This document shows, one piece after another, positions 19,536-26,324 of a stretch of 64,000 bases of DNA. Below the pieces are notes generated by a model that saw nothing but the letters and a program-made list of their open reading frames with translations, ran no database searches and was not told the DNA's origin. Every line of letters begins with the position of its first letter. Positions within the stretch are counted from its first letter, which is position 1. The translations under genes were made by a program, and so were the position numbers. The DNA is taken from the NCBI RefSeq assembly GCF_024223415.1, contig NZ_CP100500.1, one strand, 5' to 3'. The stretch comes from Escherichia coli. Lineage in GTDB: Bacteria > Pseudomonadota > Gammaproteobacteria > Enterobacterales > Enterobacteriaceae.

Positions 19536-19946
19536 TTAGATTTTAAGTTTGTCCTGGGCTACAACGACAGGTTTTCCGGATGTGTCGATGACTCCTACCG
19601 TCGGTACGCCATTTTTGATTTCGAAGAACGGTTTGTTGCTACCTGAGCACAGTTGATTGTCCCCGTATTCAATCATTTGTGCTTTCCCGGTTTTCAGGTT
19701 AACTACCGAGACAGTGTAGTCGTAGCACCAGGCACCACCACGTTCAAGCACGAAAACATAGCTGTTATCTTTATAGTTGAACTGATTCTTTGTCTGGCAA
19801 TTCATACCGTCAATTTCGGTACAGGAAAACGCTTCTGTAGTATTAACGTATTTGATGTTATTTGGCAGTTTTACTTGTTTCGCAGTAGCGAAGACAGAGA
19901 ACAGAATAGTTACAGCAACGAGTAAAGTTTTGATAAAAGTTTTCAT
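19536..19946 (-). CDS. Small secreted protein of unknown function (four Cys)
   Basis: 136-aa ORF with signal peptide MKTFIKTLLVAVTILFSVFATA; AT-rich; SD present. Confidence 0.6.
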   Translation of the reverse strand: MKTFIKTLLVAVTILFSVFATAKQVKLPNNIKYVNTTEAFSCTEIDGMNCQTKNQFNYKDNSYVFVLERGGAWCYDYTVSVVNLKTGKAQMIEYGDNQLCSGSNKPFFEIKNGVPTVGVIDTSGKPVVVAQDKLKI

Positions 19947-19961
19947 GATAGACTCCTTAAA

Positions 19962-20450
19962 TTAGTTAAACGCAGCTACGTAGTTTTTCACCAGATACGC
20001 GAATTCATGCACGCCAATTTCACCGAACCAAACCAGGTAGGCCGGGTCATCTAAACCAAAGTAACGGTAGCCAACAACTTCATGGGTTTTTGGGTTATAG
20101 AGTGTTACGATAAAGTCCCAGCCGCAGGTATTGGCTTTGCAACCGTCGCCCTGGAGCCAGACTGTATCGTTAATGTTTACTGGCGTGATACCTCCACCAG
20201 GGCCATCCATATAGCCGCCTTTACCGAACATGCCGCTCAGTCCGACCGGTTTTAATGCTTTGTCGATAGCGGCTTTGTAGGTAGCGTCACCTTCGTACAA
20301 CTCGTACGTTGATGGACACGCTCCAGGTTGTTCAGCCCAGGCTTCCGGGTTACAACTAAGTGCTTGTTTTACGGTAGCCGCTTCTGCGTTAAAGTTAAAG
20401 CCCGTGAACAGAACCGCCAGAAATAACATAAGGGTATGTAAACGTTTCAT
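19962..20450 (-). CDS. Secreted/periplasmic protein of unknown function
   Basis: Signal peptide MKRLHTLMLFLAVLFTGFNFNAEA with GGAAG SD; ORF track extends in frame to 20753 (263 aa) with a second upstream Met at 20645. Confidence 0.55.
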   Translation of the reverse strand: MKRLHTLMLFLAVLFTGFNFNAEAATVKQALSCNPEAWAEQPGACPSTYELYEGDATYKAAIDKALKPVGLSGMFGKGGYMDGPGGGITPVNINDTVWLQGDGCKANTCGWDFIVTLYNPKTHEVVGYRYFGLDDPAYLVWFGEIGVHEFAYLVKNYVAAFN

Positions 20451-20780
20451 TGTAAATATTCTTCCGTTGTAAATGGCGCTGGAAAATTTCTCATCAGTGA
20501 AACCTTCCGGAAGTTTCCCCCCCTTGTATGATGTATATCGCCAGTATTTTATTTCATCCCGGCTGTAATTTTTATATTCCCCGGCACGTGCAATAACGCT
20601 GACCAGAGATATAAGGCTCATTAATAACTTTACAGGTAATTTCATAATTAAATTTCCAGTGAGTGAATTGACAGGTGAGGGGTAAAACTTTCTCTCAGGT
20701 AATATATATCTGAAAATATTTTCAATAACACCAGACAGGAAAAACACCACCACAGGCGGTGGCGTTTCTTTGGGGCGTCT

Positions 20781-21851
20781 TTATTTAATCCGGGCCATCG
20801 CGTTTCTCAGTGCCAAATCTGCCTCTTCCGTTATATCCAGGCTTTTCTGCAATACCGCCTCTGACCGGGTCAGTGCCTGACGTGCTGCCAAGGGGTTCCG
20901 GATATGCTCCATCGTCAGCATCGTGTCTTCATAGCCCTGCTGACGCCAGATGTCGGTATGTGCCGATGTAAAACTGAGCAGACCGCCACTTTTGCCTTCT
21001 TCCCCTGTGTGTTTCAGCCTTTTCCGGGGACGGATTTCAAGGATTGTGGTGTCCGGAAAAGCCCGGCGATCCCATAAAGAACCGTCACTCAGATGCGTCA
21101 CAATCACCATATTGCATCCGGCATCGACCAGAGGCGTTACAGGGGTATTTCCCTGCATATTTCGCCATCCTCCCATCCCACCATCACCGAACATTGTCCC
21201 CTGAACCTCACGGGGATGGAACAACAGGGGCAGTGCGGCTGACGCAAGCAGAGCCTCTTTCTGCTGTCCGCGGGGCAGACTCTGGATATGCTGAAAAACG
21301 GCGTTTTTCGTGGTTCCGGCACCCAGTTCAGCACGAATGCAGTCAATAATATCCTGCATGCCCCCTTCTGTGGGGTACAGCGACACATACAGCGGTAGCC
21401 CGTCTGCCAGAGCATCAGTATCAAGATAATGATCCATCAGCGCTGTCAGAGGCTCATCTGACAACAGCGGCTGAGCCATCGGATTGTCGAAGCCGTTGAT
21501 TATCGATATATGGCGAAGAAGTATCGTAAGCAGTGCTCCTGCACGTCCGGGGATCTGGCAGAGGTTCATTGCCTGGAACAATTTTTTCAGCAATGAAAAG
21601 TAAACCGATCGGTTTACCGACAGCACCTGATTATTCCCCAGATGATCCCAGAGCGCCTCCAGGCGTACGGCAGCTTCTGACAGATCGGGAGAGGCCGCGA
21701 TAATGGCACCATTGAATGCGCCAATGCTGGCCCCTGAAACCATGCTGATCTGTGTACCACACTCTGCCAGTGCCTTAACCACTCCCGCCTGATAAGCGCC
21801 CACCGCCCCGCCACCGGACAGCACCAGCCCCGTTTTCATTTCTGTACTCAT
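20781..21851 (-). CDS. Patatin-like phospholipase
   Basis: 356 aa; oxyanion-hole motif LSGGGAVGAYQAG, GxSxG nucleophile elbow (GASIGA), DGG motif (FGDGGMGG); ATG overlaps stop of upstream gene. Confidence 0.8.
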   Translation of the reverse strand: MSTEMKTGLVLSGGGAVGAYQAGVVKALAECGTQISMVSGASIGAFNGAIIAASPDLSEAAVRLEALWDHLGNNQVLSVNRSVYFSLLKKLFQAMNLCQIPGRAGALLTILLRHISIINGFDNPMAQPLLSDEPLTALMDHYLDTDALADGLPLYVSLYPTEGGMQDIIDCIRAELGAGTTKNAVFQHIQSLPRGQQKEALLASAALPLLFHPREVQGTMFGDGGMGGWRNMQGNTPVTPLVDAGCNMVIVTHLSDGSLWDRRAFPDTTILEIRPRKRLKHTGEEGKSGGLLSFTSAHTDIWRQQGYEDTMLTMEHIRNPLAARQALTRSEAVLQKSLDITEEADLALRNAMARIK

Positions 21852-22753
21852 GCAGCCCCCTTCTGAAATATTTCATCGACCATACTTTCAGAGAGGCGTT
21901 CTGCAGAGCAGAGGCGAGGCATGCGAACCGGTAAGTGTTCTGCAGCCTGCGTGGTTGACCAGATCACCGGATGCTGCTCTTCACTGCACCAGTCTCCCAG
22001 CCAGTTAATCGCGTCATGCCACTCGTTATCTGCCTGCTCCCGGCCCTGACCACCAAGCCAGTCCAGAGTGTTCAGACGCACGGTTGCACTACCGCCACTC
22101 TCCTGTGCCATCTGCGTTAATGCTTTATGTCTGAGAATATCCAGTAGCTGGTTAACCTGGCCTGTTTCGCTCTGACGTATCACATCACCAAACGCGCCCC
22201 AGCGAAGCTCTTCAAGTGCCACATAACAACGTCCGGCAGGGGAAAATGACGCATATCGCCCGGCGCTCCACCATGAGAATATCTGCTCAAGATGTAACTG
22301 CGCCCGCTGAACCTGGTCAACACGGTGGAGTTTTTCTTCAAGATGATTCAGTTTATGGTGAACCTGATCGGCCAGGGTGAGTAACTGCTCCCGCGTATCT
22401 GCGGAATAATGCGCCAGCCTGGCTGTATCACTGACCAGTGAACTGACCCTGTCGTTTACCCGGGTAATCGCGTAGTTTGTGGTGGCAAGTGACGTTGTCA
22501 TCTCCGTCAGCCAGCGCAGGGACGCCTCAACGCCCTGTGCAAGCGACGCATTGATGGCATTCTGCCGTGCAGCGCCTTCGCCGGTCAGCCCCTCTTTTAA
22601 ACGCCGGAAGAACGTGCGCTCTCCGGCCGTGCGGATATGCTCCTGTGCAACATCGATTCCGTTTGCGAAATCAACCACAAATTTTTCAGGAAGACAGGTG
22701 AGTACCTGACATACCCGGTTATCAGCAATTTGTTGAATAAATGGTGAAGTCAC
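21848..22753 (-). CDS. Hypothetical 301-aa helical protein, middle gene of the GTPase-patatin operon
   Basis: No P-loop; likely GTG start overlapping the GTPase stop (GTGA) and stop overlapping patatin start (ATGA). Confidence 0.6.
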   Translation of the reverse strand: MTSPFIQQIADNRVCQVLTCLPEKFVVDFANGIDVAQEHIRTAGERTFFRRLKEGLTGEGAARQNAINASLAQGVEASLRWLTEMTTSLATTNYAITRVNDRVSSLVSDTARLAHYSADTREQLLTLADQVHHKLNHLEEKLHRVDQVQRAQLHLEQIFSWWSAGRYASFSPAGRCYVALEELRWGAFGDVIRQSETGQVNQLLDILRHKALTQMAQESGGSATVRLNTLDWLGGQGREQADNEWHDAINWLGDWCSEEQHPVIWSTTQAAEHLPVRMPRLCSAERLSESMVDEIFQKGAA

Positions 22754-25146
22754 AGCATTGTCTCCAGCTCTTCCCTCAGCGCCTTACTGTCAGTAATGAG
22801 CTCAGGAACCCTTTCATTTAATGCCTGAAGTCGCCCGGTAAGTCGTTCCTGCGCCTGCTGATCGCGTTTATGATCTTCAGAGCTCTGAATCAGCGTGTTA
22901 CGCAGTTGTTCAACTTTCTCCCTGAATGCGCAGAAAAAGGCATCGATTTCCTGGCGGACGGGCTGGTTAATATCCTGCTCAATGGATGCCTGCAGCTCCC
23001 CGAAATATGCCCGGGTCAGTGACATAACTTCCTCTCTGACCTTGTTGATATTGATCACGCTGCGACTCACATCCTCGTCATAGTTTTCCCAGCCCAGGTC
23101 ACTGGTGCCAAACCATCGACAAACGGTTCCCCATACGCCACTCTGCCGACGGCGACGGGTGACGGTCTCCGTTCTTTCCTCCATAAGCGCACTCAGATTT
23201 ATTTTTACCGCGAGCCGGGTCTGTAACTGGCTGACTGCCGGAAAACTGATTTTTACGGTAAAGCCCTCATCCTCCAGGCGGGCATTGATGCGACCGGCAA
23301 TGTTTTCTGTGGCGTACAGGGCCGTGCCACGAAAACCTGTTTCAATCCCGCTGACGATTTTCTCCAGCTCAGGCCGGAACTGTGCTTCAGCCTCACGGTG
23401 CAGGCTGGTCACGGTCGATTCGATTTGCGTCATCAGTTCAAGGGCTTCCCTGCGATCACTGAATTTTATTTCGGGGCTGTCCGGGGCAAAATCTCGTTTC
23501 CTGTAATCCTCCCGGCCCTGGTTGTTGATACCGGACCATTGAGAAATTTTCCCCCATAATCCGGACTGAGACCTTCGTTGTTCTGCGTCTTCTTCCTCCA
23601 GCATTTGCTGTTCTTTGCGTTTACCGCTTCTGAAATAGTCATTCAGCTCCTCTTCCAGTGAGGTGCAGACCCCCGTCAGTAATTCCCGGGTTTTAGTATC
23701 GATCTCCTCCATGGCCATTCTGACATCAGTGGTCATCTGCTCCTGACAGTCCGCGATTTCCCGGATATCCGCAAGCAGGCTGGTGATATGCGACTGCAGT
23801 GACTGAATGCTTTGCTGTAGCCCCTGATGGCGTAACAACAGGTATTCACTGATATTTTCTGCATTCTGCATCAGTTTTGCGGCGGCAGAGTCAACCGCCA
23901 GTGCCGCAGCTCTGGAATGTGAGCTCTGTATGACTTCCGTTATCAGTTGATCGATAAGTGAGCCTTCCCACAGGTCTGTCGCCCCTTCAGTTGCCAGTTC
24001 ACTGTCTTTACAGACGTATTCTTTTTTCATGCAACCGAAGGCACCTCTGATAAAATCATCGACCCAGGCTTCATCAACAGGAAGGGTTCCGTTTTTCCGT
24101 AACTCATGAAGCGCACGGTTAGCCAGGTATGCCTGGCGTGAGGATCCGGGATAAACGCGGGAGGCGGGCAGCACATCGCTGTTCAGCATTGCCGGAACTT
24201 TCTGGCGTACGGCATCTGCCCCATCGCCATTGCGGTCTTTCTCATCAAATTTATTGACCAGTACAAACAGGCGGCCGGCTGATACGTCAGCAATGGCATT
24301 AAGCTCTTTACGGACGTCTTCATCCGCTTTTGAGTTCATCTGGGTGTAATCCATCACAGCCAGAACCGCAGAGGCTTTCTGCAGTTGATCCCGCATCATC
24401 ACTTCCATCTGCGGTTGTCCGGCCTCATTAGGGCCGGGGGTATCCAGCAGTGTGAGTGTTCCCTGGCATGCATCCATCCCCACCAGATGGCTGAATTCCA
24501 CGTCGATCACCGGCAGTTTCTGCACTTCTGCGTATTCATCAAAAGGAAATTCAGTCCCCATTGCCGCAGCAAGACGAACCAGATCGTTTAACGATGCCAG
24601 TCCGGTAAAGATTTCCTCCTCCCCGTGGTATTCATTTTTGAGCCAGCCATCATCCGTCAGAATATCCAGCAGTTCGCGGGTATCCCCGGTTTGCTGCAGG
24701 GTCTGTGCGACCTGCTGTCCTGCCGGGGTGGCGAGTTTTTCCTGCAGTGTGATTAATAAATTGCGGACAGGCTGAATATGTTCCAGATGGAGAACCGGCT
24801 CAGTTTTTCCGGGAACGTGGCGGATGAGCGTCGGTACAGAGGTCATGGGGCGGTTACGGTTAGGCAGAATTTCCTGCCCCACAATGGCGTTGATGGTGGT
24901 TGATTTGCCTGCTTTCATCGTGCCGACAACAGCCAGCACCATCTCCCTGCGGGCGGTTTTGATTTGTTCGCCCTCCAGCTCCTCAATTCTTTTCAGTGCT
25001 TTCTGTTTATCAAAAAGCAGTCTGTTTTCGTTCTTACTGTCAGATAACACATCTGGCTCCTCAACCATTTGCCGGAGCAGATTAATGTTCAGTTGCAAAA
25101 GTCGGTCGGCTTCATCACAAAGCAGGGCGATGTTCTTTTCGTGCAT
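22750..25146 (-). CDS. Large dynamin-like GTPase (798 aa)
   Basis: P-loop GTMKAGKST, switch II DTPG, G4 NKFD, then ~450 aa of predicted helical region; SD AGGAAGG upstream of ATG 25146. Confidence 0.75.
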   Translation of the reverse strand: MHEKNIALLCDEADRLLQLNINLLRQMVEEPDVLSDSKNENRLLFDKQKALKRIEELEGEQIKTARREMVLAVVGTMKAGKSTTINAIVGQEILPNRNRPMTSVPTLIRHVPGKTEPVLHLEHIQPVRNLLITLQEKLATPAGQQVAQTLQQTGDTRELLDILTDDGWLKNEYHGEEEIFTGLASLNDLVRLAAAMGTEFPFDEYAEVQKLPVIDVEFSHLVGMDACQGTLTLLDTPGPNEAGQPQMEVMMRDQLQKASAVLAVMDYTQMNSKADEDVRKELNAIADVSAGRLFVLVNKFDEKDRNGDGADAVRQKVPAMLNSDVLPASRVYPGSSRQAYLANRALHELRKNGTLPVDEAWVDDFIRGAFGCMKKEYVCKDSELATEGATDLWEGSLIDQLITEVIQSSHSRAAALAVDSAAAKLMQNAENISEYLLLRHQGLQQSIQSLQSHITSLLADIREIADCQEQMTTDVRMAMEEIDTKTRELLTGVCTSLEEELNDYFRSGKRKEQQMLEEEDAEQRRSQSGLWGKISQWSGINNQGREDYRKRDFAPDSPEIKFSDRREALELMTQIESTVTSLHREAEAQFRPELEKIVSGIETGFRGTALYATENIAGRINARLEDEGFTVKISFPAVSQLQTRLAVKINLSALMEERTETVTRRRRQSGVWGTVCRWFGTSDLGWENYDEDVSRSVININKVREEVMSLTRAYFGELQASIEQDINQPVRQEIDAFFCAFREKVEQLRNTLIQSSEDHKRDQQAQERLTGRLQALNERVPELITDSKALREELETML

Positions 25147-25207
25147 TATTTAACCTTCCTAAGACGCATTTTCATGACAACCACGGAGGAGGTCATTTAC
25201 TACAAAC

Positions 25208-25242
25208 GATCGTTTATAACGATCGATATGATAGTAACGATC
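25208..25242. promoter_or_regulatory. Cluster of three GATC (Dam) sites within repeated AACGATCG motifs in the leader of the GTPase operon
   Basis: aaacGATCgtttataacGATCgatatgatagtaacGATCgatac; GATC at 25208, 25221, 25239. Confidence 0.5.
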
Positions 25243-25363
25243 GATACATTCTATTAACTTGAGAAACACAACGCAAGGGGACAACCCGGGTATGGCTGCG
25301 TTTGCATAGTGTTTTCATGGAGTTAAAAATCTGTAACAACAGCCTGGTACATCACCACCGGGT

Positions 25364-26241
25364 TCAGAAGAAAATCCAGTTCCATACCGCGCGGGCAACA
25401 GAGACCACCGAGTCACGGACGGCGCGCAGAACCGTGCGTGCAACAGAGGCAATGCAGACGCTCTCCGCCGTGTCAAATATCCGGTCCACCGCACCGGTAA
25501 ACTGTTCACGGGCCTGAGACCGGACAGACTCCGTGCGCAGCTCGTCCTGCAGGCGGGTCATCAGGGGACTGGCGGCATGGTCGGGAAGTGCTGTCATGAG
25601 CGCACTGACCAGCGTATCCAGTTCCCAGCCGGTGCGGGCCGATACGGCAACAACCCGATGTACGGGCCGGAACAGACGGAATACCGCCTCCGTTTTTTCG
25701 CGAATGTTCTGTGCCTGTGCGGGAGAAGGCTGAATACCGGCCATATCCCATTCATGGCAGGGCTCCGTTTTATCGGCCTGCATCACCACAAACAGTACCC
25801 GCTGATGTCCCCGGTGCAGGATGTGTCGCCAGAAATACTCATCCACAGACAGGGCACGGTCATCGGCTTTAATCAGCCACAGTACCAGGTCCAGTTCGAG
25901 CAGAATGTCACGGTACAGGGCTTCATACTCTGCATCCCTGTCCCGGCTCTCGCCCACCCCACCCCGGGCAGGTCAGTGATAACCATGCTGTGACCATGGC
26001 CATTCAGACGGAAGCGCTGCACTTCCCGGGGGCCGGCGTGAACATCACTGACCGGGGTGACCTCCCCCTGAAACAGCGCATTACAGAGTGAGGATTTACC
26101 GGCCCCGCTTTTACCCATAATGCCAGGCACGGGTTCGTGACTGGTGAGTTTGCGCAGATGTTCCAGGATGTGACGGGAAAGTGAGTAAGGCAGGGAGGAG
26201 AGCGGTTTTTCAATTGCCTCAATGGCATCAGACGGATTCAT
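25364..26241 (-). pseudogene. yeeP: YeeP/YfjP/YkfA-family GTPase split by a 5-bp tandem duplication
   Basis: ORF 25873..26280 (P-loop GIMGKSGAGKSSLCNALF ... ITDLPGVGW) and ORF 25364..25957 (GESRDRDAEYEALY...) in different frames; junction reads cccggggtgggGTGGGcgagagc. Confidence 0.75.
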
Positions 26242-26324
26242 ACATGTATTCCCGGTGAAAAAAGACAAAACCCCGCGCACCGGAAAGGTGGCGGGGGATT
26301 CACGGAAATAATATCTGTCTGAAA

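Follow-up and report, generated by a model that had tools for sequence, protein, structure and literature searches.

The three-gene operon analyzed here lies on the minus strand of a 64,000-nt stretch of Escherichia coli DNA (contig NZ_CP100500.1, assembly GCF_024223415.1; hereafter the window) and encodes a dynamin-like GTPase, a helical partner protein and a patatin-like phospholipase. Homology indicates that the closest characterized relative of this trio is RdcAB, a regulator of the diguanylate cyclase DgcE, and not Eleos, the defense system with which an earlier note, written by a model from the DNA letters, had compared it. The first two genes are, as judged from homology, a paralogous copy of the rdcA-rdcB operon to which the patatin gene is an addition, because both are related end to end to the K-12 pair (33% identity to RdcA, also known as CrfC or YjdA, for the GTPase and 30% to RdcB, or YjcZ, for the partner, each over essentially the full length). 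In E. coli the operon is predicted from the homology of its leader to be driven by a Dam/OxyR phase-variation switch of the agn43 type. On balance, we lean towards reading the trio as a phase-variable, GTPase-gated phospholipase module for abortive infection. The earlier note did not recognize the combination as a described system; no PADLOC model or other catalogued system covers it, but the trio has already been flagged as putative or predicted defense in two 2026 papers. The earlier note had missed both the paralogy to RdcAB and the phase switch, and our literature searches did not find the switch described on a dynamin-patatin trio.

The GTPase gene (798 aa) occupies positions 22750-25146, the partner gene (301 aa, GTG start) 21848-22753 and the phospholipase gene (356 aa, ATG start) 20781-21851, all on the minus strand. 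The stop codon of gene 1 and the start codon of gene 2 share GTGA (22750-22753), and those of genes 2 and 3 share ATGA (21848-21851), exactly as the earlier note had read them. The profile searches it had proposed matched the three open reading frames to Dynamin_N (E-value 1.6e-17), YjcZ (PF13990, 4.7e-70, over the full length) and Patatin (PF01734, 7.2e-24), respectively. An intrinsic-terminator-like hairpin at 20745-20761 (minus), with a 7-bp stem containing five G-C pairs and followed by TTTTTCC, starts 20 nt past the patatin stop codon. Since a promoter lies 5' of the genes, this hairpin lies 3' and the genes overlap, the trio is predicted to be a discrete single transcription unit with translational coupling.

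The product of gene 1 carries the G1, G3 and G4 motifs GTMKAGKST, DTPG and NKFD, and its G1-G4 motifs, including T102, were invariant across 26 homologues. The G domain extends over approximately residues 66-350 and is followed by a long helical stalk. The NCBIfam CrfC model (NF007368) matched the protein over its full length with 556 bits, against an equivalog cut-off of 1146. At this score and at 33% identity, assignment as a true CrfC/RdcA orthologue was rejected, and the GTPase is best classified, from these comparisons, as a paralogue of RdcA/CrfC/YjdA. Public names for this dynamin are inconsistent and partly wrong, and include 'dGTPase', 'clamp-binding protein CrfC' and 'putative vimentin'.

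The product of gene 2 lacks a P-loop; the motif GxxxxGK[ST] was found in the gene 1 product only. Its predicted structure was all-alpha (predicted local distance difference test score, pLDDT, 81; predicted template modeling score, pTM, 0.83), so that the earlier description of a helical protein without a P-loop stands, but its membership of the YjcZ/RdcB family had been missed. No specific solved structural relative of the model was found, and a sequence search of the Protein Data Bank (PDB) with this protein returned nothing meaningful.

In K-12, RdcA interacts with both RdcB and the MASE1 domain of DgcE, and its activation of DgcE depends on its GTPase cycle (PMC6510439). In the published model, nucleotide-free RdcA, which is favored when GTP falls, is the active form (PMC6510439). 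The first two genes of the trio share with RdcAB the gene order, the overlapping stop and start codons, a YjcZ-family partner directly downstream and the G1-G4 motifs, including the catalytic Thr (T102 in the trio, T103 in RdcA). The trio differs in several respects. It has a third gene encoding a patatin, whereas RdcAB consists of two genes with no effector gene; the trio is mobile and patchily distributed, whereas RdcAB is a core locus between yjdM and proP; and the trio is under an agn43-type promoter, whereas RdcAB belongs to the FlhDC/FliA regulon. At the stalk tip, the GTPase of the trio has a loop that RdcA lacks, its Trp-rich motif is stronger, and by analogy its target would presumably be the lipase or the membrane, in place of DgcE.

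Eleos (formerly 'Dynamins', LeoA with LeoBC) comprises two dynamin-like proteins encoded one after the other, both P-loops of which are needed, and has no lipase (Millman et al., 2022). The trio resembles it in encoding a dynamin-like GTPase found in defense islands, with homology at the level of the G domain only, and differs in having one dynamin, a partner lacking a P-loop and a patatin effector. The PADLOC profile for LeoBC matched the GTPase at 8.6e-5 over residues 29-89 only, with no stretch passing, and the LeoA profile matched none of the three proteins. Assignment to Eleos was rejected because that system needs two P-loop dynamin-like proteins and the trio encodes one.

The dynamin-like architecture proposed in the earlier note was confirmed by structural comparison. 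The AlphaFold2 model of the GTPase (pLDDT 78) comprised the G domain, long stalk helices (residues 447-527, 565-626 and 700-759) and a distal tip. Its top Foldseek matches were the bacterial dynamin-like protein BDLP (2j69, 3.7e-13), SynDLP and IniA, these three over the full length, and mitofusins, and the Campylobacter dynamin-like protein pair and LeoA (4aur, 7e-6) were also returned; a PDB sequence search gave a weak match to BDLP (1.6e-5). The protein thus has the dynamin-type G domain of the BDLP superfamily and, on the predicted structure, its neck and stalk helices. The tip carries a conserved Trp-rich motif at residues 664-688 and a variable loop at residues 528-553. The motif, RRRRxSGxWGxxCxWFxTDDWGWExY, is common to trio-type dynamins and was placed in beta-hairpins of the model; the loop that adjoins it is partly hydrophobic and of low confidence, and K-12 RdcA has no such loop. 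On this model, the Trp-rich tip is a candidate binding site for the membrane or for a partner.

These structural features also bear on a different function, membrane maintenance or remodeling, in which the dynamin would seal or reshape the inner membrane, as DynA does, and the lipase would edit phospholipids locally through lysolipid production, curvature or removal of damaged lipids. The cell would then be protected and not killed, and any effect on phage would be a delay of lysis. The fold is that of membrane-remodeling BDLPs and mitofusins, and both the Trp-rich motif and the variable hydrophobic tip loop, the latter missing in soluble RdcA, are consistent with such a role. Bacillus subtilis DynA has been cited as a precedent for a phage-linked membrane dynamin (PMC12922286; Millman preprint). 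DynA is likewise a bacterial dynamin-like protein linked to phage resistance; it is, however, a housekeeping fused double dynamin that delays lysis, is not mobile, and has neither an RdcB partner nor a lipase. Genes for housekeeping repair tend to belong to the core genome, whereas the present module is patchy, mobile, phase-variable and often pseudogenized or disrupted by insertion sequences (IS), and its neighbors are immune genes, not envelope-stress genes. A membrane-repair role is therefore one that we consider unlikely.

The product of gene 3 has a complete set of predicted catalytic residues, with an oxyanion GGG at positions 13-15, the nucleophile S42 in GASIG (G40-S42-G44) and D223 in DGG. 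As far as motifs can indicate, it has every signature of the patatin family (GGGxxG, GxSxG and DG[GA]), in agreement with the motifs listed in the earlier note. The Gly-rich loop, the Ser and the Asp were invariant across 30 homologues, and the subfamily has an extra motif, GGWxxxQGNTPxxPL. The nearest solved relative was PlpD (5fqu, 2.9e-12 in a PDB sequence search, N-terminal part only). No signal peptide was recognized and the protein is predicted to be cytoplasmic. The lack of a secretion signal and the occurrence of the trio in non-pathogens led us to reject a secreted virulence lipase of the ExoU/VipD type.

Cytoplasmic patatins are also the probable membrane-destroying effectors of type I CBASS (antiphage signaling systems based on cyclic oligonucleotides) that encode CapV. 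The trio resembles these in having such a patatin, in being a multi-gene module and in its association with mobile elements. It differs in encoding neither a CD-NTase (cGAS/DncV-like nucleotidyltransferase) nor any other nucleotide cyclase, and control of the lipase would, by analogy with RdcAB, operate through protein-protein contact with the GTPase and not through a cyclic nucleotide. CBASS requires a cyclase. The lipase fell below the NCBIfam cut-offs of the CapV, RssA and DS-2 models, with 18.6 bits against 200 for CapV (NF041079); given this score and the lack of a cyclase domain in the operon, assignment to CBASS was rejected.

If the trio acts in abortive infection, the patatin phospholipase would be the effector, controlled by the GTPase and its RdcB-type partner, and would by analogy take the place of DgcE as the controlled partner. 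A trigger, for which phage infection, membrane perturbation and a fall in GTP are candidates, might change how the complex of GTPase and RdcB-type partner is oligomerized or which nucleotide state it is in, as suggested by the example of RdcA and RdcB. The complex could use the Trp-rich tip of its stalk to dock on the inner membrane and release or activate the lipase, membrane phospholipids would be hydrolyzed, and growth arrest or death would follow before phage progeny mature. In Escherichia, competition between Dam and OxyR for three GATC sites would arm a subpopulation in a heritable and reversible manner, and with only a subpopulation armed the cost of a self-damaging effector would be limited.

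The evidence for this switch comes from the leader. A sigma-70-type promoter, TTGCGT-17 nt-TAGAAT, is located at 25248-25276 (minus) and is homologous to the agn43 (flu) and cah promoter; it aligns with the yeeP-flu leader of K-12 and the yeeP-cah leader of O157, with which it has the segment TAATAGAAT in common. Just past the -10 box, three GATC sites at 25208-25242 (minus) form, by pattern and alignment, a predicted agn43-type Dam/OxyR operator. The sites are spaced by 18 and 13 nt, compared with 19 and 13 nt in K-12 agn43, and a single instance of the triple-GATC pattern is present in the window, against 0 expected from 100 shuffles. The block of promoter and GATC sites was identical to K-12 agn43 at 51 of 74 positions (69%), and the flanks at 28 of 96 and 27 of 62. 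In agn43, Dam methylation and OxyR binding compete at the GATC operator, resulting in heritable ON/OFF expression of Ag43 (PMC3764049). The trio leader is like the agn43/cah switch in its -10 box, in the near-identical spacing of the three GATCs and in its position downstream of yeeP. It differs in driving a GTPase-lipase operon instead of an adhesin, or besides one in O157, and the long 5' untranslated region of agn43 is missing from the leader in the window. Related Dam/OxyR switches control gtr and opvAB in Salmonella.

The proximal leader at 25144-25190 (minus), with the ribosome-binding site AGGAAGG at 25154-25160, equals the last 47 nt of the spacer between cah and the dynamin gene of O157:H7. 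In that serotype (strain TR01, locus L090, 3623-8967), yeeP is followed by the switch, cah, a 110-nt spacer and then the dynamin, rdcB-like, patatin and DUF932 genes. No promoter-like or terminator-like site was found in the 110-nt spacer, and the cah adhesin gene and the trio of O157:H7 are therefore probably transcribed together under phase-variable control. By comparison, the allele in the window seems to have arisen by a clean deletion of an Ag43-family open reading frame together with the long 5' untranslated region, because the 47 nt before the dynamin ATG are identical to the end of the O157 spacer; this deletion would have brought the switch to its position 60 nt upstream of the dynamin gene. 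Among E. coli genomes, 1,985 had the fused leader directly upstream of the trio and 635 had the cah-dynamin junction, and the two forms together account for essentially all intact E. coli copies. The switch was also present in E. albertii, where all three GATCs are kept despite five nearby substitutions. Trio loci of other genera had no agn43-type switch, and WYL genes often occupied the upstream position there.

The link to an adhesin switch raises the alternative that the trio is a signaling device like RdcAB, in which the GTPase pair would read the GTP pool and act on a target at the membrane, for example a cyclase of the MASE1 type or the Ag43/Cah surface program, and the lipase would alter the envelope or produce a lipid signal as cells aggregate and form biofilms. 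Homology to RdcA and RdcB over their full lengths is consistent with this, RdcAB controls biofilm matrix through DgcE (PMC6510439), and the trio stands either 110 nt downstream of cah or directly behind the switch in the genomes counted above. However, the identity to RdcAB is about 30%, the NCBIfam score is half of the equivalog cut-off and the Ag43 link is confined to Escherichia. The trio also occurs in bacteria of differing lifestyles (Allochromatium, Gallionella, Pseudomonas) and in contexts of the defense type, and the strictly conserved, intact lipase site suits an executioner better than a modulator. For these reasons a signaling role seems quite unlikely.

The distribution of the trio argues for a functional unit. 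Of 5,426 complete E. coli genomes, 2,443 carry the same 4.8 kb with a coverage of 80% or more, in up to six places per genome, and the unit is kept in other genera, so these are real genes and not chance open reading frames. The trio was intact in about 45% of the complete E. coli genomes, often in several copies, with enterohemorrhagic and uropathogenic strains and O104:H4 among the hosts. In every case checked, patatin homologues of 47-64% identity directly followed Dynamin_N and YjcZ genes; their hosts were Pectobacterium, Vibrio vulnificus, Pseudomonas fluorescens, Yersinia, Plesiomonas and Enterobacter.

A YjcZ alignment scan with one genome per species yielded 79 loci, which were sorted by tblastn. 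The 29 trio-type loci all displayed the order dynamin-YjcZ-patatin where the contig allows, and were distributed among E. albertii, Pantoea, Erwinia, Budvicia, Serratia, many Pseudomonas, Thiodictyon, Allochromatium, Macromonas, Aquaspirillum, Comamonadaceae, Gallionella, Marinospirillum and others. About 48 loci were two-gene RdcAB orthologues, restricted to Enterobacteriaceae, and none of them had a patatin gene. The trio order was also seen in six of six further look-ups, three of which were distant YjcZ representatives from an exhaustive profile search, so that all 35 non-RdcAB YjcZ loci examined, from gamma- and beta-proteobacteria, had the same gene order. The co-occurrence that the earlier note had proposed as a check was therefore found throughout, with defense genes near many of the loci. 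The exhaustive profile search returned only 480 YjcZ-family representatives among 1.84 billion. Gene junctions overlapped by 4 or 8 nt in most trio loci, and the pairwise identities of the three proteins were correlated (r ~0.85); the three proteins are, on these comparisons, co-evolving as a unit.

Plasmids carrying the trio numbered 44, among them conjugative IncF plasmids from Klebsiella and Enterobacter. A variant of 62% identity, flanked by IS1 and IS30, circulates in Klebsiella, Enterobacter and E. coli on some 25 plasmids. On the K. pneumoniae IncFII plasmid NZ_CP147596.1 (6773-10991 of locus L089), the dynamin gene is annotated with 2,232 nt and is shorter than the chromosomal gene. 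Truncation or interruption by an IS affected many copies; in O145 and O157 strains, for instance, IS3 interrupts the dynamin gene. Truncated patatin fragments of about 237 aa are common in O157 and are labeled 'ferredoxin reductase' in databases.

Carriage on conjugative plasmids, and residence in a cargo slot whose neighbors include the CbtA/CbeA toxin-antitoxin pair and further genes for island maintenance, would also be expected if the trio were selfish cargo for addiction or competition. The lipase would then be a toxin restrained by the other two proteins that stabilizes the island or plasmid or harms competitors, and no role against phage would be involved. Against this, the lipase has no secretion signal and no linkage to a secretion system, large GTPase machines are not typical antitoxins, and frequent pseudogenization indicates that loss is tolerated. 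We consider this explanation very unlikely.

The genomic neighborhoods fit a role of the trio in defense. In the window, the trio is located in a CP4-44-type island at the yeeA/tmaR site, in the position held by flu-yeeR in K-12. The earlier note had placed it in this cargo slot between a YeeP-family GTPase and DUF932, and the flanks are as it described, although the YeeP gene is frameshifted and two small genes before DUF932 were not mentioned. The YeeP-type GTPase gene (25364-26280, minus) is split into two overlapping open reading frames, a frameshift that RefSeq also annotates. Downstream are genes for DUF932 and antirestriction, followed by yeeS, yeeT, cbeA and cbtA. The YeeP-type GTPase is island backbone and not a part of the trio. 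Intact YeeP-like GTPases accompany the trio in loci of Pectobacterium, P. fluorescens, E. albertii and Serratia.

WYL or BrxR-type regulators were detected in 12 of the 29 trio loci and were directly upstream and co-oriented in L005, L034 and L088. Different lineages may thus place the same module under different 'defense-style' regulators. The WYL regulators beside the trio outside Escherichia are BrxR/CapW-like. Bacteriophage exclusion (BREX) genes occurred near the trio in L005 (brxL, pglZ) and L008 (brxC), and restriction-modification genes in L007 (type III methyltransferase) and L028 (type I methyltransferase and S subunit). SNF2/Zac-like genes were present near the trio in L009 and L039, the latter also with a type II endonuclease; L088 had Mrr and PD-(D/E)XK genes and L093 had DndB. 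Integrases and a relaxase were also found near trio loci.

The defense hypothesis agrees as well with an independent machine-learning prediction. In the DefensePredictor tables, a 798-aa E. coli 'dynamin family protein' from an operon of 4,366 nt is listed as a 'Predicted novel defense gene' with log-odds of 6.7 (PMC13092281); the operon in the window has the same length. A 794-aa variant scored log-odds of 7.7. The listed dynamin has remote similarity only to Eleos LeoBC, at the level of the G domain, and adjoins the validated system DS-38 (PMC13092281).

The operon has also come up in a transcriptome study. In E. coli MP1 the operon is expressed, and its genes were the most up-regulated ones in a Kapi1 lysogen compared with the cured strain under all conditions (PMC12922286). 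The authors noted about 30% identity to RdcAB, called the operons putative dynamin defense systems and reported that their regulation does not track the lysis-lysogeny decision (PMC12922286). The lysogen and the cured strain may have been in different phases after separate single-colony bottlenecks, an explanation simpler than prophage induction, and phase alone may account for the reported 'prophage-induced' up-regulation. The switch is a more general warning, in that single-colony comparisons of transcriptomes, phage susceptibility or mutants can differ at this locus by phase alone.

Several observations weigh against a defense function. A PADLOC scan of the three proteins gave sub-threshold matches only and no model fitted, and the sole characterized relative, RdcAB, is a signaling regulator and not an immune system. 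Many defense families show effector modularity, but here the effector was never swapped and was always a patatin; swapping was also sought in the three distant YjcZ representatives, and a patatin followed in three of three. A tblastn search with the RdcB-like protein against 50,697 phage genome records gave no match, so the gene is not phage or satellite cargo in that collection. Some trio loci have no defense or mobile context, for example Yersinia L086, which lies between ars and JmjC genes. The tie to an adhesin switch in E. coli could point to a surface or biofilm role. The word 'dynamin' is absent from the tested-systems file of DefensePredictor (PMC13092281), and literature searches combining dynamin, patatin, RdcB and GATC/OxyR found no experimental study of the trio. 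The assignment of the sensor, and the role of the RdcB-type protein as inhibitor or activator of the lipase, are purely what we infer.

Phylogenetic analysis placed the two-gene RdcAB systems in a monophyletic and taxonomically narrow clade (100% bootstrap in an unrooted tree). The RdcAB dynamins grouped with the trio dynamins of Budvicia and Serratia, also with 100% bootstrap, and the support in the RdcB tree was 14%. Parsimony favors the hypothesis that RdcAB is a derivative of the trio that lost the lipase, which is stated as a hypothesis because neither tree is rooted and the grouping is not recovered with RdcB. A wider scenario, which we regard as possible but doubtful, is that the trio is the ancestral and predominant form of YjcZ/RdcB systems, a GTP-gated phospholipase machine for immunity or suicide, that RdcAB was domesticated with loss of the effector, and that the Escherichia copy on the Ag43 switch represents epigenetic bet-hedging of abortive infection, with immunity, and where cah is present also the adhesin under this promoter, limited to a heritable subpopulation.

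If these proposals are true, one of the commonest uncharacterized accessory operons of E. coli would be an immune module of new design, in which a mechanochemical GTPase controls a lipase directly, without a nucleotide second messenger. RdcA has been assigned roles both at the replication fork and in cyclic di-GMP signaling, and the trio would offer a handle on what dynamins of the RdcA/CrfC type sense. It would also be a clear case of exchange between mobile defense modules and core signaling.

In E. coli ATCC 25922, a study of olaquindox resistance listed 122 variants in 'crfC', 75 in 'rssA' (a patatin), 10 in 'yeeP' and three in 'yjcZ' (PMC7696260). As the variants cluster in exactly the genes of the multi-copy island operon, this pattern suggests read mis-mapping between paralogous operon copies rather than selection.

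PADLOC and NCBIfam searches with the three nearest flanking hypothetical proteins (227, 136 and 384 aa) returned nothing, nor did PADLOC alone with three other open reading frames of the island. The two small genes for the 227- and 136-aa proteins (RefSeq calls) are located at 19536-20645 (minus), between the patatin terminator and DUF932. Both proteins have signal-peptide-like N-termini, and the 227-aa protein has a second, internal signal-like segment. The two genes are absent from the O157 arrangement, in which DUF932 directly follows the patatin gene, and may correspond to the two genes beyond the trio among the 'five genes on island 8' that were co-up-regulated in E. coli MP1.

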